Assembly (NCBI GenBank): GCA_033764315.1
Contig: JANRJA010000075.1
Location: forward strand, 1 to 64,000
Origin: Oculatellaceae cyanobacterium bins.114
Lineage (GTDB): Bacteria; Cyanobacteriota; Cyanobacteriia; Elainellales; Elainellaceae
Reading direction: 5' to 3'
DNA length: 64,000 nucleotides
The notes beneath the pieces were generated by a model. The model made no database searches. It was given only the letters and a program-made list of their open reading frames with translations, and was not told where the DNA came from. Shown here one piece after another: positions 7,074 to 63,958 of this stretch. Made by a program: the position numbers and the translations under genes. Every line of letters begins with the position of its first letter. Positions within the stretch are counted from its first letter, which is position 1.

Positions 7074-7190
7074 ATTTTAAGAGAGCCACGACTATTGACA
7101 ATTATTAGTGTAAAGGGAAAGGGAAGAAGGAAAAAAGGGTAAAGAAGCTCTCGCTCACTCAGCCTTCAACTATTTTCCTTACCCTCGCAT

Positions 7191-19171: not shown

Positions 19172-19235
19172 TATAGCAGTCCTAAATCAGTTGTGAGAGG
19201 CGCACTCATCTCACAACCCATCTGCGATTGCTATA
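19172..19235. mobile_element. TATAGC-bounded MITE, short copy
   Basis: tatagcagtcctaaatcagttgtgaga...tctcacaacccatctgcgattgctata; same family as 22885-22977. Confidence 0.7.
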
Positions 19236-19298
19236 TTAAGGGTTGTCTATTTAGAGGAGTTACTTTTGTTAACCATTGTCTAGGCGATATCCAGGCAA

Positions 19299-22884: not shown

Positions 22885-22977
22885 TATAGCAATCCCAAAT
22901 GGGTTGTGAGAGGCGCACCCCTCAGGGGTGCGCCTCTCACAAACCGCCCATTTCATAACTGATTTAGGACTGCTATA
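22885..22977. mobile_element. TATAGC-bounded MITE, longer copy, inverted relative to 19172-19235
   Basis: tatagcaatcccaaatgggttgtgaga...tcataactgatttaggactgctata with a perfect internal hairpin ttgtgagaggcgcacccct/aggggtgcgcctctcacaa. Confidence 0.75.
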
Positions 22978-23511
22978 AAAGCTTTTTGTTATTTGAACAA
23001 CAGGCTTTGTTAAGAAGCAGTTGAGAATCGTCAGCCAATTAACAGCGATTTTGCAAAAGCTTGACGCTGCTTGATTTTTTGAAGTGAGGTTGATTAGGGT
23101 TAATGCTCTAAAAGGAATGATTTTGGGGTAAGTAGGTGTTGTGTCAAGTGTGGCGTATACCTACCTGTTTAGAACTACCTTTAACTTGAAGAAAAGGAAA
23201 AACTAGAGGCTCTTTAAAGTAGCTGTTAAAGTATTTTCTGTAGATCTGAATCTCTCTAACCTTAAGCTTTCCTTCAAATAATGGGTCGGCTGAATTGTCT
23301 AACCGCTGGCTTTAGGGATGTTTGTTTACTTAAAGTAAACTTCTGAAAAAAAATGAAAAGTGAATAGCAGTAAAAGCTAAAAAAAACGGAAGCTATGAAA
23401 TGAGAAGTATTTGCCTGAAAAGGGGAAGGGTAGAGATTTTCATACCTGTGCTTGTCAAGGTTATGCAGTCATTGTGCAAGTTATATTGACTCGCAGCGCA
23501 CTATCTTTGAT

Positions 23512-33608: not shown

Positions 33609-33942
33609 GCATTCTTGGCTCTCAACCAGAGAGCACCCACCACCCCAAAAACGTCAACCAGTTTGATGGCTGTGTACCGTTTGAGCCAAAAATTAAGACA
33701 TAGGTGAGAGGTGCCAAGCGTCTTTGATCTTTTAAGCTGAGGATGAACTTATCCACTCGGCGATCGCTGCACAACCGAGCACCCCTATGACCTCAAAAGA
33801 CTCCACATCCAACTGGCGAAGGTATTGCTGGAGGAGTTTGAGAGCGTTTTGCAACCATCTTAAAGAACTTGTCAAGTGAATGGTTACAATTTAAACCAAC
33901 GACTTAAATCAACAACCCACTCCAGGCAAATTAACCTTGGGA

Positions 33943-35283
33943 ATGCCAGAGGCGATCGCTCTTTTTTTCTCCTACTCTCACAGAGATGAGCCACTGCGCG
34001 ACAAACTCGCAGAACACTTGAAGATCCTGGAACGCCAGGGTGTGATTTCCTCATGGCACGATCGCCAGATTGGTGCAGGAACTGAGTGGGCAACCGAAAT
34101 CGAGACGAATCTCAACCAGGCAGATATTATTCTGTTGCTAATTAGTGCATCGTTTCTCAGTTCTGACTATTGCTGGGGCATCGAGCTACAACGGGCAATG
34201 GAACGCCATGAGAGCGGGTCAGCCTGTGTCATTCCCGTGATTCTGCGCCCAGTAGATTGGAGTGGTGCCCCCTTTGGCAAACTCCAGGCATTTCCCAAAG
34301 ATGCTAAACCCATCACCCGTTGGGACGATCAGGATGAAGCCATGATGAATGTGGCACAGGGCATTCGAGCCGCAGCAGAACGGTTGAAAACCTTGCGTCA
34401 ACAACAGCGAGTTACAGAAGGGGGAATTGCTCCCTCCGCTCAAGATCCTACAACTCAACAAATCCGACAGTCAGGGCAGGGGGAATCGCACTATCGAGAC
34501 GAAGTGCAACACTGCTTTTGTGAGGACGGGGGGATGATTTCACCCGTCAGTCGGGTCTATTTGGATGGCTTACGCAATAGCTTAAAACTCTCAGTAGAAC
34601 AGGCAGAGGCGATCGAGCAAGATACCCTCAGACCCTACCAGACCTATGCTCAAACCTTGAGTGCCATGCTGCAACAGCAGTATCCCTTAACTCCATCGGC
34701 TCAAACTCTATTAGAGCGATTGCAGAAGACGTTGAACCTGAACGATGAAGAGGTTAAGACTCTGAGCGATCGCGTGATTGCTGAAGTTGCACCACAACCC
34801 TCTGACGACGATGATCTTACTTCTGAAAGGGGAATTGACTATACACAATTACGTGGCTTTTTAAGGGCAGGTCATTGGGAAAAAGCAGATCAGGAAACTT
34901 ACCGAGTCATGACTCAATTAGTGGGAAAAAGCCAGAAAAGTTGGTTGACATCTCATGATTTGTTCACTTTCCCCTGCATCGACCTGAGGACAATCGATCG
35001 CTTGTGGGTCAAATATAGCAATGACAAGTTTGGCTTTAGCGTGCAGAAACAGATTTATGTTGAGTGTGGTGCCCAATTGGATGGCAATTATCCTGGAGAT
35101 GACATTTGGTATAAGTTTTGTGAGTGTGTTGGCTGGAGAGTTAACGGAAAAAACGTAAGCCACGCTGATTTGAAAAAGAATCCTTTATTCTCTTTTCCTG
35201 GGGAATTGCCTACTTTAAGCGTGTTAGGAGTGAAGCGAGGAGGTGGCTTCATTTTCTCTCGTATCGAAACTTGTAAACTGTAG
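33943..35283 (+). CDS. TIR domain - helical linker - GUN4-like domain protein
   Basis: TIR motifs FFSYSHRD, WHDRQI, SDYCWGIE and VIPVIL; GUN4 motifs DYTQLR..L..G.WEKADQET, FPCIDLRTIDRLWVKYS..KFGFSVQKQIY. Confidence 0.9.
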   Translation: MPEAIALFFSYSHRDEPLRDKLAEHLKILERQGVISSWHDRQIGAGTEWATEIETNLNQADIILLLISASFLSSDYCWGIELQRAMERHESGSACVIPVILRPVDWSGAPFGKLQAFPKDAKPITRWDDQDEAMMNVAQGIRAAAERLKTLRQQQRVTEGGIAPSAQDPTTQQIRQSGQGESHYRDEVQHCFCEDGGMISPVSRVYLDGLRNSLKLSVEQAEAIEQDTLRPYQTYAQTLSAMLQQQYPLTPSAQTLLERLQKTLNLNDEEVKTLSDRVIAEVAPQPSDDDDLTSERGIDYTQLRGFLRAGHWEKADQETYRVMTQLVGKSQKSWLTSHDLFTFPCIDLRTIDRLWVKYSNDKFGFSVQKQIYVECGAQLDGNYPGDDIWYKFCECVGWRVNGKNVSHADLKKNPLFSFPGELPTLSVLGVKRGGGFIFSRIETCKL

Positions 35284-35423: not shown

Positions 35424-35609
35424 ATGAGTGACAAAGAAGCAGTGCTTGAGCTTGTAAAACGTTTACCTGCGACCGTGTCTCTGCGTGAAATTTTGCGAGA
35501 GATTGAATTTATTGCGGCAGTCAAAGAAGGGTTAGAAGAGATTGATCAGGGACAGGGGCTTTCAATTGAATCTGTTGAGCAAATGATGAACACATGGACT
35601 ACACCGTAA
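35424..35609 (+). CDS. Putative antitoxin (small acidic protein upstream of RelE/ParE)
   Basis: 61 aa; GLEEIDQGQ motif; overlaps the toxin start. Confidence 0.75.
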   Translation: MSDKEAVLELVKRLPATVSLREILREIEFIAAVKEGLEEIDQGQGLSIESVEQMMNTWTTP

Positions 35610-35890
35610 TTCTATCTCCTAAGGCAGTTGGAGATTTAGAGGCGATCGTCCGGTACATTACGTTGAACAATCCAGAAGCTGCTCGAATGGTTGGGCAAAA
35701 TCTTCTAAACAAAGCCAAGGAATTGAGCCAGTTTCCATTGAAAGGGCAAATGGTACCAGAGTTCAATAGTCCTGACATTCGGCAGGTTATTCTGAAGCCC
35801 TATCGGATTGTGTATCGAGTTGAAGAAGATAGGAAACGGATTAGTATTGCCCGATTTTGGCACTCCGCTCAAGACAACTTAGAGCTTTGA
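35594..35890 (+). CDS. Type II TA toxin, RelE/ParE family
   Basis: AVGDLEAIVRYI..NNPEAA, FPLKG..VPE, YRIVYRV and FWHSAQ motifs. Confidence 0.88.
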   Translation: MDYTVILSPKAVGDLEAIVRYITLNNPEAARMVGQNLLNKAKELSQFPLKGQMVPEFNSPDIRQVILKPYRIVYRVEEDRKRISIARFWHSAQDNLEL

Positions 35891-44514: not shown

Positions 44515-44675
44515 AAAAGCTCAAGGGGAATGGGGAGTCGGCAATCGAGAGTTAGAAAAGTCAAGGGGTAAGATGCTCATTGCCCCTGCTGCCGTGATTT
44601 TTTTTCTTTTTTTTCTCCTCTTTTTTCCGCCTTCCCTCATGTCATAATGATGCGACTGTTTTTCTGAATGCTGGA

Positions 44676-49174: not shown

Positions 49175-49278
49175 GGTTCACGTCCTGTAGTGCTTCCCTT
49201 AGTTCAGCCTTTTTCAGCTATATCATGGGTTTATCTAAAATAGAGCGATATGCACTCAGTTTGTCGAGGGAAAACGCG

Positions 49279-49851
49279 ATGTCTGTTGCTGTAAAACCGA
49301 TGACCCTTGAAGAGTATCTCAACTATGACGACGGCACTGACACCCGCTATGAACTGGTGAATGGGGAACTGATTGCCATGCCACCTGAAAGTGACTTGAA
49401 TACTCAAATTGCTTCGTTTCTGTTCGCAACTTTTTTGAAAGTTGGCATTCCTTATTATTGCTTGAGAATCGGGGCACAAATTGCTGTTAGTGGAGCACGG
49501 GCAACGGCGAGAGAACCCGATCTGATGGTTTTATCAGAAGAGGCTTTTGCAGCATTAGAGGGTGCAAGCAAGTGTGTCATCACTCACGATATGCCACCAC
49601 CGTTGTTAGTAGTTGAAGTGGTCAGTCCCCAACAAGAAAGCCGCGATTATCGCCACAAACGTACTGAATACGCGGGACGACGCATTCCTGAGTATTGGAT
49701 CGTAGACGCGATCGCTCAAAAAGTAACGGTGTTGGAATGGGTGGATGGCTTGTATGAGGAACAGGTCTACCAGGGTGAACAACCTATTGTTTCGTCGCAG
49801 CTTACTGGGTTAAACCTGACAGCAGCAACCGTCTTATCAGCAGGACGATAA
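49279..49851 (+). CDS. Uma2 (DUF820) family endonuclease-fold protein
   Basis: YELVNGEL, PDLMV, LVVEVVSP and K..EY...IPEYWIVD motifs. Confidence 0.92.
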   Translation: MSVAVKPMTLEEYLNYDDGTDTRYELVNGELIAMPPESDLNTQIASFLFATFLKVGIPYYCLRIGAQIAVSGARATAREPDLMVLSEEAFAALEGASKCVITHDMPPPLLVVEVVSPQQESRDYRHKRTEYAGRRIPEYWIVDAIAQKVTVLEWVDGLYEEQVYQGEQPIVSSQLTGLNLTAATVLSAGR

Positions 49852-49974: not shown

Positions 49975-52467
49975 ATGAGTAACCAGCGCGATCGCGGTCG
50001 TATTCTCACTCCTGAAGGGCTGCAAAAACTCCAGCAGGCAATTCGCGACTGGGAAATTCGGCATGAGAAGCGGTGTACGCAGGAGCGGATTAAGGAACTG
50101 ACGAGCGCATTTAAAGAAGGGGGACTCGATCCAGCTACCATCAGCAGAATTCTGAAAGCGAGAGGTGTTGATCTCGACTCCATTCGCTGTCTATTTAAAA
50201 CATTTGGATTGCAACTGGATGAAGCCGATTGGGTATCTGCTACTCCATTCAATGTTCAGGTTGATCCTAACTTTGTGGGAAGGGAAGAGGCGATCGCTGC
50301 CCTCAACGCTCTGGTCAGTCGGGGTGCAAAGGTGATCGTGATTCAGGCACGGGGCGGAGTTGGCAAAACTACCCTGGCACGAAAGTATCTGCAACAAAAA
50401 TTTGGCTCTTTTTTAGAGATTGCGATCGCTAAGGAAACAAAAGATATTGCCTCGATCGAAAGCTTGATTGAAGAGAAGCTGCGTCAGTTGGGAGAAGAAC
50501 CCGGACGAGAGTTTATTGTGTCGTGCGATCGCCTCAAACGCAAACTGCAATCTGAACCGATTGGCATTTTGATAGACAACCTGGAACCTGCCCTGGATGC
50601 TGCGGGTAAGTTCATCGAACCGCATCGTCGTTACGTCGAATTGCTGCGGGTTTTAGCTGATCCAACGGTGCAATCTGTGACACTCATTACCACTCGTGAA
50701 CGCTTGCACGAAGCGAGTGTGACTGTGCAACGCTATCCCTTAAAAAGTTTAGATGTTGAGTCTTGGCAGCAGTTCTTTCAAAGCCGCAATATTCAACTTA
50801 CGCCCCCCTTATCGTTGCAGATCCCCCCTAACCCCCCTTGCGAAAAGGGGGGAACCAGATTGGAAGTCCCCCTTTTTAAGGGGGATTTAGGGGGATTGCA
50901 GGGGAGCGTGCAAACTGTTGACATCTCAAGCGAGGATCAATCTGCCCTAGCTGCTTTGCATCATGCTCATGGCGGCAACGCAAAAGCGATGGAGATCATT
51001 AGTGGTGCAATTCAGCAAGATTACTCCGGCAATGTGGAAGCCTATTGGCAAGCCAATCAAAATGACCTGTTAAGTGAACGTTCTCTGGAAGATTTAGTCA
51101 TTCAACAATTTGAACGGTTACAGCAACATAATCTTGATGCTTATAACCTGCTTTGTCGTATGGGTTGTTACCGCTATCAAGACGTGCCAAAAGTGACCAT
51201 TGAAGGGTTGTTTTGTTTGCTATGGGATGTGGCGGAGAATCGACAGCAACGAGTCATTCAATCTTTGCAAGATCGATCGTTGATTGAAGTTGAAGATAGA
51301 GAATACTGGTTACATCCAGTAATAAGAGCAGAATCGATCACTCGCTTGAGAAAAATTGAGGATTGGAAAATTGCCAACTATAAAGCAGCACAAGAATGGA
51401 AGGTGAGCGTTAAGACTATTGAAACATTGTTAGACGCTCAGAAGCCTTTCGAGGCTTGTTATCACTGTTTAGCAATCAACAATTTTGAACTTGCCGGAAG
51501 GATGATAATAGAAGAAAAGAAAGCTAAGTATTCTAGATTTGGGGATACTGAACCTCTTGGTCGATTATTTCATAAATTCGGAGTAGTTGAACAGTTAATT
51601 ATTGTTATTGACTTAATTCTGAAAAATATCAAAGCTGGCTTTGTGCTCGTAAAACTGTGTTCTATACTAGGTGATCTCCACTCGTCATTAGGGAATATTC
51701 ATAAATCCATTGCCTGTTTTAGAGAGTCATTAAGGGTAGGAAAAGAAATTTTGGATGAATCATTACTTAATATCAGTAAAGAAGATTTTCAGAAAATTAT
51801 ATCAGTTAAAATACATTCTTTTTTCAATGTTGGCATCTGCAAAATATTTCTCTGGGAATTAGATGAAGCGTTAGAAATATTTGAACAAGGAGAAGCCTTG
51901 TTCTTAAGTAAAAATTTGTCTTTGCTTGAAGTATTTGAATTGAATAAAATCCTCACATTTTATTTTCTATTTATAAAATCCTACTTACGTAATGAGACAG
52001 AAGTGTCTATTGCTGCTAACAAAATCTATAATGAAATTTTTGACGTGTCAGAATTACCTAAATGGTGTACAGAGTATAGATTGTTTTTTTTAGGAAAAGC
52101 ACTTACAAACGTAGGGGAATATGCAAAGGCTTACAAAGTTTATCAGAAGGCTGTTTGCATTGCTGAAGAAACTGGATTTAGACAGGTAAAAGGAAAAGCT
52201 TTGTATGGTTTAGCAGAGATTTATCGAGAACAACAAAATTTTGATATGGCATTTTTAAATCATTCCAATTCAGTTGAATTACTGAGAATAATAGGATCTA
52301 AGCACGATTATGCCGAGTCTCATTTTCAACTTGGGTTGACTTATCAAGTAGTGGGTGATTTTGAGAGAAGTAATATAAATTTTCAAGAGGCAATTCGGTT
52401 ATTCAATGAAATGGAAGCACCGAGGCAGGTGGAGAGAGTGAGGCAGTCAATGCAAAATGAAAAATGA
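49975..52467 (+). CDS. STAND (NB-ARC-like) ATPase with N-terminal HTH-like region and C-terminal TPR repeats
   Basis: NFVGRE, Walker A ARGGVGKTT, Walker B ILIDNLE, LITTRE, LHPVIR; TPR-like helices at the C-terminus. Confidence 0.88.
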   Translation: MSNQRDRGRILTPEGLQKLQQAIRDWEIRHEKRCTQERIKELTSAFKEGGLDPATISRILKARGVDLDSIRCLFKTFGLQLDEADWVSATPFNVQVDPNFVGREEAIAALNALVSRGAKVIVIQARGGVGKTTLARKYLQQKFGSFLEIAIAKETKDIASIESLIEEKLRQLGEEPGREFIVSCDRLKRKLQSEPIGILIDNLEPALDAAGKFIEPHRRYVELLRVLADPTVQSVTLITTRERLHEASVTVQRYPLKSLDVESWQQFFQSRNIQLTPPLSLQIPPNPPCEKGGTRLEVPLFKGDLGGLQGSVQTVDISSEDQSALAALHHAHGGNAKAMEIISGAIQQDYSGNVEAYWQANQNDLLSERSLEDLVIQQFERLQQHNLDAYNLLCRMGCYRYQDVPKVTIEGLFCLLWDVAENRQQRVIQSLQDRSLIEVEDREYWLHPVIRAESITRLRKIEDWKIANYKAAQEWKVSVKTIETLLDAQKPFEACYHCLAINNFELAGRMIIEEKKAKYSRFGDTEPLGRLFHKFGVVEQLIIVIDLILKNIKAGFVLVKLCSILGDLHSSLGNIHKSIACFRESLRVGKEILDESLLNISKEDFQKIISVKIHSFFNVGICKIFLWELDEALEIFEQGEALFLSKNLSLLEVFELNKILTFYFLFIKSYLRNETEVSIAANKIYNEIFDVSELPKWCTEYRLFFLGKALTNVGEYAKAYKVYQKAVCIAEETGFRQVKGKALYGLAEIYREQQNFDMAFLNHSNSVELLRIIGSKHDYAESHFQLGLTYQVVGDFERSNINFQEAIRLFNEMEAPRQVERVRQSMQNEK
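50800..50909. repeat. In-frame palindromic dispersed repeat inside the STAND gene
   Basis: Nested inverted repeats acgcccccct/aggggagcgt and atcccccctaa/ttagggggat enclose two hairpins; translates as PPNPPCEKGG...VPLFKGDLGG. Confidence 0.85.
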
Positions 52468-52481
52468 AAAATGGAGGATGA

Positions 52482-52790
52482 ATGCGTGTTATCAGTCGAA
52501 AAGCACTGAGAGAATTTTGGGAAATTCATGCTACTGCTCAAACTGGATTATTACTCTGGTATCAACGAATTACAGAGGGCGACTTTCAAACATTTAATGA
52601 TCTTCGACAAATATTTCCTTCGGCAGACTTGGTAGGTAATCTCACAGTTTTCAACATCAGTGGTAACAACTTTCGATTAATCGTATACATTGACTATCCC
52701 TATCAACTCATATTTATCCGCGCTGTCCTGACCCATGCAGAATACGACAAGGAGAATTGGAAAAATGACGATTGGTTTGAAAACTCCTAG
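52482..52790 (+). CDS. higB: Type II TA toxin, HigB family
   Basis: MRVISRKALREFW, FPSAD, VFNISGNNFRLI and LTHAEYDK motifs. Confidence 0.92.
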   Translation: MRVISRKALREFWEIHATAQTGLLLWYQRITEGDFQTFNDLRQIFPSADLVGNLTVFNISGNNFRLIVYIDYPYQLIFIRAVLTHAEYDKENWKNDDWFENS

Positions 52791-54045: not shown

Positions 54046-54588
54046 ATGATTGCTGCTCACGATTCAACAACTGCACCGATCGCCCTAGAGGTTTGGCTCG
54101 ATAATCCACCAGTTAGAACAGAGTGGGTTGACGGTAATGTGCTGCAAAAACGCGATATGACCCTCAAGCATAGTAAAATTCAGCGGCGATTAAGCACGTT
54201 ATGGAGCAATTATATTGATACTCAAGGTTTTGGGGGTGAAGTGTATACAGAAGCCCCTTGTCGGACAAAACAGCAGGGACGTTCACCTGATGTTGCCTAT
54301 CTAACCCCAGATCTGGTGGCTCAGTATGGAGACGCTAAAGTATTGCCCCAAAGTTTTCCTTTGAGTGCTGAGGTGATATCACCGACCGATTTAGCAGAAG
54401 AGGTGATTGCTAAAGCATACGAATATTTAGAATTTGGGGGTGAAGAAGTCTGGCTTGTTTACCCAGATAACGGTTGGATTATGGTCATCACAGCGGAATC
54501 CAAGCAAATTTTTAGTCGGGGAGAAGTAGCTGTCACCCAAAAGGTAATACCAGGCTTTCAGATCAGTGTTGATGAATTGTTAGCTTGA
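54046..54588 (+). CDS. Uma2 (DUF820) family endonuclease-fold protein
   Basis: EWVDG, PDVAY, AEVISP and K..EYL..G.EEVWLV motifs. Confidence 0.9.
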   Translation: MIAAHDSTTAPIALEVWLDNPPVRTEWVDGNVLQKRDMTLKHSKIQRRLSTLWSNYIDTQGFGGEVYTEAPCRTKQQGRSPDVAYLTPDLVAQYGDAKVLPQSFPLSAEVISPTDLAEEVIAKAYEYLEFGGEEVWLVYPDNGWIMVITAESKQIFSRGEVAVTQKVIPGFQISVDELLA

Positions 54589-61026: not shown

Positions 61027-61608
61027 ATGCTGAATCGTCGTGCCTTGCTACAAGTCTTGTGGATTGGTTGCATTGCTCTTTTATGTTCTTTAAGTGCGCT
61101 TCCCCCAACCGGGGGACTGCTTGGCATCGCCCCAGCTTTTGCATTGGGTGGAACTCAACCCCCACTCAATCAACCCGCCCCAGCTTTTACGTTGCCAACG
61201 AATGTTGGGAATGGTGAAATCTCCCTCAGCGACTATCAGGGCAAGTGGGTCGTTGTCTATTTTTATCCCAAAGACTTTACCTCTGGCTGCACCTTAGAGG
61301 CGCGTCGGTTTCAGCAAGACTTACCCAAATATCGAGATCGCAACACCGAGATTTTGGGCATCAGTGTCGATGATGTCGATTCTCATGCTGAGTTTTGTGA
61401 CTCTGAGGGACTGCGCTTTCCGCTATTGGCTGACACCGATGGATCGGTTAGCAAGGCATATGGTTCATGGTTAGGGGTTGCCTCTTTGCGACACACCTAT
61501 ATCGTCGATCCGCAAGGGATTCTACGAGAGCGGTTTTTAGGCGTCCAGCCTGCGGTTCACAGTGCTGAGGTATTGGCTCGATTGGATGAGCTACAACAAG
61601 AAGGATGA
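61027..61608 (+). CDS. Peroxiredoxin (PrxQ/BCP family), exported
   Basis: YFYPKDFTSGCTLEA peroxidatic motif; N-terminal RR/hydrophobic signal. Confidence 0.92.
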   Translation: MLNRRALLQVLWIGCIALLCSLSALPPTGGLLGIAPAFALGGTQPPLNQPAPAFTLPTNVGNGEISLSDYQGKWVVVYFYPKDFTSGCTLEARRFQQDLPKYRDRNTEILGISVDDVDSHAEFCDSEGLRFPLLADTDGSVSKAYGSWLGVASLRHTYIVDPQGILRERFLGVQPAVHSAEVLARLDELQQEG

Positions 61609-61690
61609 AGAATGAAAAGTGAAGAATGAAAAGCGAAGAGTGAATTTAAACGTTTCCTTCTTCTTTTTTCTCTCTTTCCTTCTTAATAAT

Positions 61691-61822
61691 GTGCCGGGGC
61701 ATGAGGCGGGGGCTTACCCATGCCGATCCTGACGAAGGGAAGGATCTTTGGCTGATGTCGTGTTACCTGAAAATGATGATAGGGCTGTACAGGTGTGCGA
61801 CATAAGTCAGTTATCCGGCATT
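61691..61822. ncRNA. Candidate structured non-coding RNA of unassigned family
   Basis: Closing stem tgccgg/ccggca encloses stems ggcatg/catgcc, gatcct/aggatc and a long stem ggctgatgtcg..acctg / caggt..cgacat..tcagtt. A minus-strand promoter is adjacent. Confidence 0.55.
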
Positions 61823-61852
61823 GCTTAATCCGATGTATTACTTATACTACAA

Positions 61853-61881
61853 ATACTACATCAGTCTCTATGATCTGTCAA
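61853..61881 (-). promoter_or_regulatory. Near-consensus sigma70 promoter TTGACA-17-TAGTAT pointing into the structured element
   Basis: Minus strand: ttgaca gatcatagagactgatg tagtat. Confidence 0.6.
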
Positions 61882-62003
61882 TCGATCTTGAGGCAATCCG
61901 CGATCGCCTCTTAGAGAGCAGTACTGCGATCGCCACAGACTTGACTCAAAGAGTAAACATCCTTTAGCAAAATTGCCTATTCTGGAAAAGGATGTGCAAA
62001 TAA

Positions 62004-62966
62004 ATGGGTATGAGTAATCAAAGGGAAGCTGAGCGGCCAGATCAGATTGTCACGATCGCTGTAGTAGGCGATGTTCATGACCAATGGGATCGGGATGATG
62101 AACATGCGCTCAAAAAAATGGGGGTCGATCTGGTGTTGCTGGTGGGTGATTTTGGCAACGAAGCGGTGAATCTGGTGCGATCAATTGCCAATCTTTCAAT
62201 TCCCAAGGCGGCTATTTTAGGCAATCACGATGCCTGGTATACGGCGACTGATTGGGGTAGAAGCAAGTGCCCCTACGATCGCACCGTGGAAGACCGGGTA
62301 CAACAACAGCTTGATGCATTAGGTGCGGCCCATGTGGGCTATGGCAACCTAGATTTACCTCATTTGGGGCTGAGTGTAGTGGGGGCGCGTCCCTTTAGTT
62401 GGGGTGGCTCGACCTGGAAAAATGAGGAGTTTTATCGCGATCGCTATGGTGTGACGAGCTTTCAAGAATCCATCGACAAAATTGTGGGCGCGGCTCAACA
62501 GACCACATCAGACACCATCATTTATCTGGGGCACTGTGGTCCTATTGGGTTAGGCGATCGCCCCGAAGACCCTTGCGGCAAAGACTGGCAACCTCTAGGG
62601 GGTGATCACGGCGACCCTGATTTTGAAGCGGCGATCGCTCAAACCCGTGACCTTGGCAAAACCATTCCCCTAGTGGCGTTTGGGCACATGCATCACCAGT
62701 TGCGGCACACCAAACTGCAACTCCGTCGTCCAGTTCATGTGGATGCTCAAGGCACGGTGTATGTGAATGCGGCTTATGTACCGCGTATCATTCCTACTGA
62801 GGAAGATTGCTTGCGTAACTTTACGATTGTCACTCTCAAAAATGGGGTGGTGTTTCAGGTGGCACTGGTCTGGTTAAATCAAGACCTTGCCATTCAGTCA
62901 AAGCAGATCTTTCACCAACAACCCTTCCCAGTTGAAGAAGAAGTGGAGGAACTGGCTTCAACTTGA
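62004..62966 (+). CDS. Calcineurin-like metallophosphoesterase (TIGR04168/DevT-like)
   Basis: GDVH, GDFGNE, GNHD and GHMH motifs. Confidence 0.88.
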   Translation: MGMSNQREAERPDQIVTIAVVGDVHDQWDRDDEHALKKMGVDLVLLVGDFGNEAVNLVRSIANLSIPKAAILGNHDAWYTATDWGRSKCPYDRTVEDRVQQQLDALGAAHVGYGNLDLPHLGLSVVGARPFSWGGSTWKNEEFYRDRYGVTSFQESIDKIVGAAQQTTSDTIIYLGHCGPIGLGDRPEDPCGKDWQPLGGDHGDPDFEAAIAQTRDLGKTIPLVAFGHMHHQLRHTKLQLRRPVHVDAQGTVYVNAAYVPRIIPTEEDCLRNFTIVTLKNGVVFQVALVWLNQDLAIQSKQIFHQQPFPVEEEVEELAST

Positions 62967-62984: not shown

Positions 62985-63374
62985 TTATCCTTGAGTTGTC
63001 TGCTCTACTTTAGGCTTGGCTCGACCGAGGGGACGCAGTTCGGTAATGACAGGCTCGTACTTGCAATAACACAACACAATCTGCCTCTGAGTAACATTGG
63101 ACGATGCAGCATACTGCTCTACTCGTGTAATGACCCAATCTCCCTCACGTACATGGGTCGAACTTTCAGGATATTCAGGATCAGCAAAGCTTTCTATCTT
63201 CAAGAATTGTCTGAAGCGATCGCCCACTTGCGGCAGGTTGGAACCTGTGTAATCCCATTGCTCATCTAGAATATCGGTCAAGCCTCCCATTGGAAGTTTC
63301 CGCTCTTCCCAACCCGGTTGATTTGGTTCTGCCAGAAATAGTATCCAGGTTTCAGCCATAGACATCACCTTCAA
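62985..63374 (-). CDS. Hypothetical protein
   Basis: 129-aa ORF; PQVGDR and DWVITRVEQY motifs; 4-bp overlap with the upstream gene. Confidence 0.7.
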   Translation of the reverse strand: MKVMSMAETWILFLAEPNQPGWEERKLPMGGLTDILDEQWDYTGSNLPQVGDRFRQFLKIESFADPEYPESSTHVREGDWVITRVEQYAASSNVTQRQIVLCYCKYEPVITELRPLGRAKPKVEQTTQG

Positions 63375-63958
63375 AGCTGGTCTGCCTCATAATTCAATCT
63401 TCTGCTAATTATTAGCCGTAAAAGACCAAACCCTAAAACTAGTACTAACAGTTCTGGCATCCCTATTAGCATCAAAATACTAGCTACAGATAGTACTCCA
63501 GATACCAACAAAACCAAATTCAGCGAAGGAGCAATTTCTCCAATGTGCCTTCCGGGTCGAAGAATGAAATTTTGAATTGCGGGTATTAAACGTATTGAGA
63601 GAGAAAAAGCAAATAACGCAGTCATTCCAAGTGGTGAGTATTTTCCAAATTGATGAGGATGTAGCTTCACCCAGCCCAGTAAATTATCCATTACAAGCAG
63701 AAAAACAACTAGAATCACCATTGGGATGAGGGACAGCACGCGGATCGGAACCCCCTCTCTTATCGGCACATCCTCTATTGAGGCAGTAGGAATGAAACCA
63801 ATTCTGCTTATTTGCGCAATGACCTCTGATGCAGCAATTGAGGGTGAAAAGCGAATTTCTGAAGGGTACTCGGTCAGAATGTGTTTGATGAGAACTGATC
63901 CTGAATCTGTCTGTTCTAAAGCAGCGATTTGTTGAGATTCAAATTTGTACTCAACCAA
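63371..63958 (-). CDS. Hypothetical membrane protein
   Basis: 195-aa ORF with about four hydrophobic segments. Start uncertain. Confidence 0.65.
   Translation of the reverse strand: MVEYKFESQQIAALEQTDSGSVLIKHILTEYPSEIRFSPSIAASEVIAQISRIGFIPTASIEDVPIREGVPIRVLSLIPMVILVVFLLVMDNLLGWVKLHPHQFGKYSPLGMTALFAFSLSIRLIPAIQNFILRPGRHIGEIAPSLNLVLLVSGVLSVASILMLIGMPELLVLVLGFGLLRLIISRRLNYEADQL

Follow-up and report, generated by a model that had tools for sequence, protein, structure and literature searches.

A candidate lineage-specific small RNA with C-rich loops in the spacer between prxQ and a TIGR04168-family gene of a filamentous-type cyanobacterium

Trans-acting small RNAs (sRNAs) with C-rich loops are known in the Firmicutes, where they include sRNAs of the RsaE/RoxS type and the hairpins of RNAIII. 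Cyanobacteria have intergenic sRNAs, such as Yfr1/Yfr2, PsrR1, NsiR4 and IsaR1, which are conserved across cyanobacteria, and cyanobacterial genomes commonly hold sRNA candidates that are specific to a lineage. Retrons carry an msr-msd non-coding RNA in which a short closing stem, made of terminal inverted repeats, surrounds two small hairpins and one long hairpin. Here we describe an element of about 130 bases that resembles each of these in some respects, as well as MITEs and ERIC/RUP/Correia-type repeats.

The element lies at 61691-61821 of the window (the whole stretch of 64 kb that was analysed) and folds into a four-way junction on either strand. Like RsaE, RoxS and RNAIII, its minus strand has several CCC or UCCC hairpin loops with almost no G, it comes with a promoter-like site of its own and without an open reading frame (ORF), and by analogy it could pair with Shine-Dalgarno regions. 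Unlike these Firmicutes RNAs, to which it has no sequence or Rfam similarity, it belongs to another phylum, it is known here from sequence alone, and its hairpins are enclosed in a closed four-way junction instead of standing in a row. With Yfr1/Yfr2, PsrR1, NsiR4 and IsaR1 it shares an intergenic position, a candidate promoter of its own, a length within 100-250 nt and a single-stranded stretch rich in C and U. The cyanobacterial sRNAs were compared through whichever of them Rfam 15 holds, and no Rfam family scores above 19.5 bits; unlike these conserved sRNAs, the element occurs at none of the 80 orthologous TIGR04168 loci listed, a comparison that would hardly detect a single-copy gene situated in another part of a genome.

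The resemblance to MITEs and to ERIC/RUP/Correia-type repeats lies in the size (about 130 bp), the intergenic position, the strong fold, the terminal inverted repeat and what may be a target-site duplication. On the other hand, the terminal repeat of the element is about 7 bp long, no other copy was found in the window, the 80 loci listed or the plasmids, and there is no related transposase nearby. The terminal structure speaks against a MITE: the inverted repeat is below transposon length, and the CTTAAT direct repeat does not abut it. As in retrons, the plus strand of the element has a closing stem around two small hairpins and one long hairpin, but no reverse transcriptase gene is adjacent to it, and the gene downstream is a conserved housekeeping-type TIGR04168 gene which lacks the element at the 80 loci listed. 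A retron RNA was rejected, the neighbours being AhpC/TSA and metallophosphoesterase genes and a reverse transcriptase domain being absent from the 52 ORFs scanned in the window.

The spacer that holds the element (61609-62003, 395 nt) is bounded on its 5' side by prxQ, an AhpC/TSA peroxiredoxin gene (61027-61608, plus strand), and on its 3' side by a gene for a metallophosphoesterase of the TIGR04168 family (62004-62966, plus strand), whose closest named relatives among the matches listed are Leptolyngbya-like, Elainellaceae and Thermoleptolyngbya; the nearest TIGR04168 match listed (P0002, encoded on a 14.6-kb contig) has 84% identity. We take the DNA of the window to be chromosomal and to come from a HIP1-rich (GCGATCGC-rich) cyanobacterium of the filamentous type, the HIP1 repeats having been identified by recognition. 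A first, sequence-only reading of this DNA had described a GC-rich island in the spacer. The GC content of the element block (0.54) does exceed that of its flanks (0.36-0.42), but it is simply at the local coding level (0.47-0.59).

Elsewhere in the window, Pfam identifies a protein that combines an N-terminal TIR domain with a GUN4-like one (33937-35283), a ParE toxin (35594-35890), a HigB toxin (52482-52790) and two putative endonucleases of the Uma2 family (49225-49851 and 54046-54588). Downstream of the TIGR04168 gene, two overlapping minus-strand ORFs of 129 and 195 aa (62985-63374 and 63371-63958) match no Pfam family and have no tblastn counterpart (E<=1e-5) in the 80 loci listed.

The multi-way junction that the sequence-only reading had drawn was recovered as a four-way fold with all of the helices listed earlier. 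In the minimum free energy structure of the plus strand of 61685-61830, from which the coordinates of all helices are taken, the closing stem P1 (61691-61697 with 61815-61821) encloses the hairpins P2 (61698-61724; 61698-61707 with 61712-61724) and P3 (61725-61746; 61725-61730 with 61741-61746) and the bulged stem P4 (61748-61810; 61748-61769 with 61790-61810), which ends in a 20-nt apical loop. The free energy of this plus-strand fold is -56.2 kcal/mol, as compared to -41.9 +/- 3.9 kcal/mol for shuffled sequences (z -3.68), and that of the minus-strand junction is -43.1 kcal/mol, as compared to -30.0 +/- 3.1 kcal/mol (z -4.30); on either strand, 0 of the 200 shuffles are as stable. The non-Watson-Crick pairs of the plus-strand fold are all G.U (six of six, four of them within P4) and none is A.C. 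On the minus strand these six pairs become A.C positions which open the outer part of P4, and the junction is 13 kcal/mol weaker.

Read on the minus strand, the hairpin loops are AAGCCCCC, UCCCUUCGUC and UACAGCCCUAUCAUCAUUUU; they are C-rich and almost G-free, with CCC in each, and UCCCUUCGUC is the P3 loop exactly where it had been reported. The unpaired bases of the minus-strand fold comprise 24 C and three G out of 64. Those of the plus-strand fold are A/G-rich and C-poor (3 C out of 50), and unpaired bases of this kind are typical of structural RNAs.

The clues to the strand of the element conflict. The lower free energy, the G.U instead of A.C pairs and the A/G-rich, C-poor unpaired bases speak for the plus strand. 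The minus strand has the promoter-like site, the C-rich and nearly G-free loops, the better z score against shuffles and the tighter ensemble (positional entropy of 0.243 vs 0.426 on the plus strand, ensemble diversity of 8.6 vs 13.2); in addition, a long hairpin at 61597-61685 is significant on this strand only, and a 257-nt model of the minus-strand transcript folds with -70.3 kcal/mol (z -5.20). The G-U pairs had been put forward as an argument for a plus-strand RNA. The six pairs exist, but the argument is weaker than claimed, because the energy gap between the strands ranks only 318 of 3194 in the scan described below, and both the shuffle z and the long hairpin favour the minus strand.

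The stability of the fold was set against a GC-corrected background of 3194 overlapping 140-nt segments across the 64 kb. The plus-strand fold ranks 9th (z -3.1) and is the third distinct region, 22901-23040 and 50821-50960 being more stable, while the minus-strand fold ranks 333rd (z -1.1). Considering its rank, the plus-minus gap of -11.5 kcal/mol is ordinary for the DNA of the window. One 140-nt segment as stable as that of the element is roughly what chance yields in 64 kb.

The two regions of greater stability have features of their own. The most stable 140-nt segment of the scan (z -6.2) holds the nearly perfect hairpin, about 25 bp long, of a copy (22888-22976) of a small palindromic repeat family with the ends TATAGCA...TGCTATA; a second, shorter copy is at 19172-19236, and the family has no similarity to the element. 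The 22888-22976 repeat is faced by a promoter-like site of the minus strand, TTGACA-16-CAAAAT at 23147. The second most stable region (50820-50900) contains two hairpins of the G5/C5 type (CCCCCCUUGCGAAAAGGGGGG and UCCCCCUUUUUAAGGGGGA) inside the ORF of a TPR protein (49975-52467). They may be an inserted repeat, or else this ORF may have been wrongly joined.

Regarding transcription, the sigma-70-type promoter-like site TTGACA-17-TAGTAT that had been reported on the minus strand, facing the element, is present at 61853-61881, with 10 matches out of 12, a perfect -35 and 17-nt spacing. A transcript would start near 61846-61848. Sites with at least 10 of 12 matches occur in 9.4% of 2000 shuffles of the spacer, and the whole window has seven of them vs 10.1 +/- 3.2 in shuffles. 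Six of the seven are wholly intergenic, intergenic DNA being 16% of the window, and none is wholly inside an ORF; in shuffled intergenic DNA 2.4 +/- 1.5 are found, and 4% of 500 shuffles reach six. Judging from their positions, about four of the other six sites directly precede a gene of the same orientation. On balance, we lean slightly towards the minus-strand site being real. It is divergent from the promoter-like motif of the TIGR04168 gene, at a distance of about 100 nt, and upstream of the element the scan gave no promoter-like site on the plus strand. The -10 of the site is overlapped by a tandem heptamer, ATACTAC-AA-ATACTAC (61844-61859, plus strand), which yields two TAGTAT on the minus strand; it could be the site of a regulator, or it could be due to chance.

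The terminator scan found no canonical intrinsic terminator. The long hairpin at 61597-61685 (minus strand) is A/U-rich, has one purine-rich and one pyrimidine-rich arm and overlaps the prxQ stop codon (61606-61608); its free energy is -32.1 kcal/mol on the minus strand (z -4.43) and -27.3 kcal/mol on the plus strand (z -1.43). According to this folding model, it is possible that it works as a terminator without the canonical U-tract, either in both directions or on the minus strand. Its weak matches to miRNA precursors in Rfam mark it as a generic long hairpin. The 3' arm of the hairpin, beside the element, is one of four polypurine/polypyrimidine sites in the window, all of which are intergenic (2753-2795, 7110-7147, 44597-44638 and 61651-61685); with a threshold of at least 24 nt and at most one mismatch, such tracts give 66 overlapping matches vs 0.6 expected.

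In agreement with the earlier view that the element does not match 6S, SRP, tmRNA, RNase P or familiar riboswitches, a search of the whole window against Rfam gives no match at gathering score. When Rfam 15 is searched at E<=10, the best scores are 17.2 bits over the element (171 nt; gathering score 42) and 19.5 bits over the spacer (501 nt; gathering score 60), which is noise in both cases. P2 resembles the MS2 operator hairpin at 9.2 bits, which was dismissed as noise as well, and ARAGORN finds no tRNA or tmRNA gene in the window. It was also right that there is no minus-strand gene downstream of the promoter-like site: the largest ORF there has 29 aa, and none reaches 30 aa. On the plus strand, an open frame of 38 aa has no relative in a word-index search. 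Its sole phmmer match among 1.84 billion representatives (P0121), a protein of 1028 aa, was rejected as a bias artefact, because it is repetitive and gives no BLASTP alignment to the query. The small ORFs give nothing above the Pfam cut-off, and the element is most probably non-coding, judging from these ORF lengths and homology searches. The literature on cyanobacterial MITEs, on transcription starts and non-coding RNA in Leptolyngbya, and on TIGR04168 yielded nothing pointing to the element, which, as far as Rfam and this limited literature search go, is undescribed.

Within the window, the element is single-copy, with one match at up to three mismatches and a longest partial copy of 13 nt. 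A dispersed repeat, which the sequence-only reading had considered as an alternative, is not seen there, although this excludes very high copy numbers only. Relatives were sought in an orthologous set of at least 80 TIGR04168 loci (1.22 Mb, with at most 72% identity among the matches listed, the source genome not being among them). Neither blastn (word 7) nor nhmmer detects the element in any of the 80 loci listed, and a single-sequence covariance model (E<=10) finds only its self-match (172.5 bits) over 1,283,679 bases that include these loci. Such a search has almost no power for a single-copy homologue located elsewhere in other genomes; what it shows, at the level of sequence similarity, is that the element does not accompany TIGR04168 as a conserved feature at the 80 loci listed. 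The plasmid collection gives no match at E<=1, and a match in the phage collection (61 nt, 75% identity, E 0.4) was rejected as noise.

In none of the 80 loci listed does prxQ adjoin TIGR04168. A prxQ orthologue is present in only one of them, L036, where it is downstream of TIGR04168, on the opposite strand, with 68% identity and without the element; a convergent ORF comes directly after it, with no such structure (z +0.68). Prediction of targets of the minus-strand RNA by RNAduplex, against the 58 gene starts of the window, gave -28.7 for prxQ and -24.0 for TIGR04168 vs a mean of -27.5 +/- 6.4. This search was dropped as uninformative, because the duplexes were unrealistically long and neither neighbour stood out.

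The sequence-only reading had also suggested that the element might be a leader of the gene that starts at 62004. Upstream of this gene and outside the element, a promoter-like motif on the plus strand (61973-61992) consists of a -10-like TATTCT followed by GGAAAAGGA. The motif cCTATcCTGGAaAAGga is conserved upstream of TIGR04168 genes across several cyanobacterial orders. In the form TATNCT[GT]GA it is found in 37 of 79 orthologous loci listed, mostly 10-35 nt ahead of the start codon, the background being 90 per 2.44 Mb, and TG(Y)CAAAA often occurs about 16 nt upstream of it. From its sequence and position, cCTATcCTGGAaAAGga looks like a conserved promoter (-10) with a ribosome-binding site, or like a regulator site. 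We know of no description of it, and the literature search on this family was without result. The copy of TATNCT[GT]GA in the window (61978-61986) is 18-26 nt ahead of the start and about 160 nt downstream of the element. As the motif resembles the gene's own -10 and ribosome-binding site, the leader is expected to be short, and a role of the element as leader is disfavoured, since it is situated about 160 nt upstream of that motif. The suggestion is not supported, and a cis-regulatory leader or riboswitch of TIGR04168 is disfavoured in general: if the motif is taken as a guide, the element is outside the 5' UTR, and it recurs at 0 of the 80 orthologous loci listed.

We propose, with a probability of about 0.4, that the element is a lineage-specific, independently transcribed sRNA of the minus strand, about 160-250 nt long and with loops rich in C and poor in G. 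The arguments for it are the site with 10 of 12 matches and its divergence from the TIGR04168 motif, the enrichment of such sites in intergenic DNA, the z scores of the junction and of the longer transcript model (-4.30 and -5.20), the tighter ensemble, the C-rich loops, the preference of the long hairpin for this strand (z -4.43 vs -1.43) and the absence of any ORF of 30 aa or more. We count against it the fold that is 13 kcal/mol weaker and ranks 333 of 3194, the 9.4% chance of such a site in the spacer, the lack of a canonical terminator and the duplex search that singled out no neighbour among 58 gene starts; nor is there support from conservation or covariation, because no homologue was found in the 80 loci listed, the plasmids and the phages.

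A rival reading is a plus-strand RNA structure in the 3' UTR of prxQ, or in read-through from this gene. It would act in stabilisation or processing, or as a terminator of an unusual kind, and would lack its own promoter; in that case, the site on the minus strand would be accidental or have another purpose. Such a structure would have the orientation of both neighbouring genes and the more stable fold (-56.2 vs -43.1 kcal/mol, rank 9 of 3194), and it would agree with the six G.U pairs out of six and with the A/G-rich unpaired bases (3 C out of 50). We nonetheless find it unlikely. The energy gap between the strands is ordinary (rank 318 of 3194), and the plus-strand ensemble is less well defined. 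No plus-strand promoter-like site was found upstream in the scan, the long hairpin and its pyrimidine tract separate the element from the prxQ stop codon, and the TIGR04168 gene has its own conserved motif further downstream. Besides, the prxQ orthologue of L036 (68% identity) is followed by a convergent ORF and no structure (z +0.68).

It may also be that the element has no RNA function of its own. An insertion relic, MITE-like or from another mobile palindromic element, would fold through its inverted repeats; it would explain a discrete block with coding-level GC within an A/T-rich spacer, P1 as a short inverted repeat at the ends, and the CTTAAT direct repeat on both flanks (61682-61687 and 61824-61829). 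The absence of the element from 80 of the 80 orthologous TIGR04168 loci listed, the adjacency of prxQ and TIGR04168 that is not conserved, and the presence in the genome of another small palindromic repeat family (22888-22976 and 19172-19236) go in the same direction. However, the terminal inverted repeat merely has about 7 bp, the CTTAAT copies stand 3-4 nt outside it, and a shared flanking 6-mer is expected by chance in 3.4% (empirical) to 6.4% (shuffles) of cases. The interior consists of three distinct hairpins, not of one long hairpin made from two ends; the next best match in the window is 13 nt, which is still compatible with a few hundred genome copies, and no copy is found in the 80 loci listed (1.22 Mb), in plasmids or in phages. 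In the window, 52 larger ORFs were scanned with Pfam, which detects no transposase, integrase or reverse transcriptase among them, and on the whole we regard such a relic as improbable. We give an equally small chance to a fortuitous fold beside a fortuitous promoter-like site, with no function at all. With some 450 independent 140-nt segments per strand, the most extreme z to be expected is close to -3, the local probability of the promoter-like site is 9.4%, nothing is conserved at the 80 loci listed and the site was picked after a scan of all 64 kb; conversely, on neither strand is the observed energy reached by any of 200 shuffles, a single spacer of 395 nt combines the fold with the promoter-like site and the hairpin, the unpaired bases are skewed (3 of 64 are G on the minus strand, 3 of 50 are C on the plus strand) and promoter-like matches are enriched in intergenic DNA.

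To return to the minus-strand sRNA, what is observed is how the element folds, that a promoter-like site faces it, that it has no ORF and which bases its loops contain; from this we infer the transcription, the 3' end and the mode of action of the RNA as follows. Transcription from TTGACA-17-TAGTAT, divergent from the TIGR04168 promoter, would start near 61846-61848 and give an RNA with a 25-nt A/U-rich leader, then the four-way junction from 61821 down to 61691. The 3' end would be at or within the long hairpin 61685-61597, which would be common to the convergent prxQ, and read-through would carry the RNA into the 3' end of prxQ, in antisense orientation. The C-rich loops would base-pair with the purine-rich ribosome-binding regions of target mRNAs. 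In its fullest form, the proposal is that of an sRNA not described before and restricted to one cyanobacterial lineage, which would be transcribed from the minus strand with a length of about 160-250 nt and whose four-way junction would present three C-rich, G-free loops as seeds for targets of the Shine-Dalgarno type. It would be a cyanobacterial analogue of the C-rich-loop RNAs of Firmicutes, with divergence from TIGR04168 and a terminator shared with prxQ. We advance this detailed version tentatively and consider it somewhat doubtful as a whole.

The element opens no long-standing question as a candidate. If it is transcribed, it would add one more orphan regulatory RNA to those of the poorly studied filamentous (Leptolyngbya-like) cyanobacteria, and its design, with several C-rich loops, would be worth comparing with known sRNAs. 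The more general by-product of this analysis is the promoter-like motif that is found upstream of TIGR04168 genes in many cyanobacterial orders.
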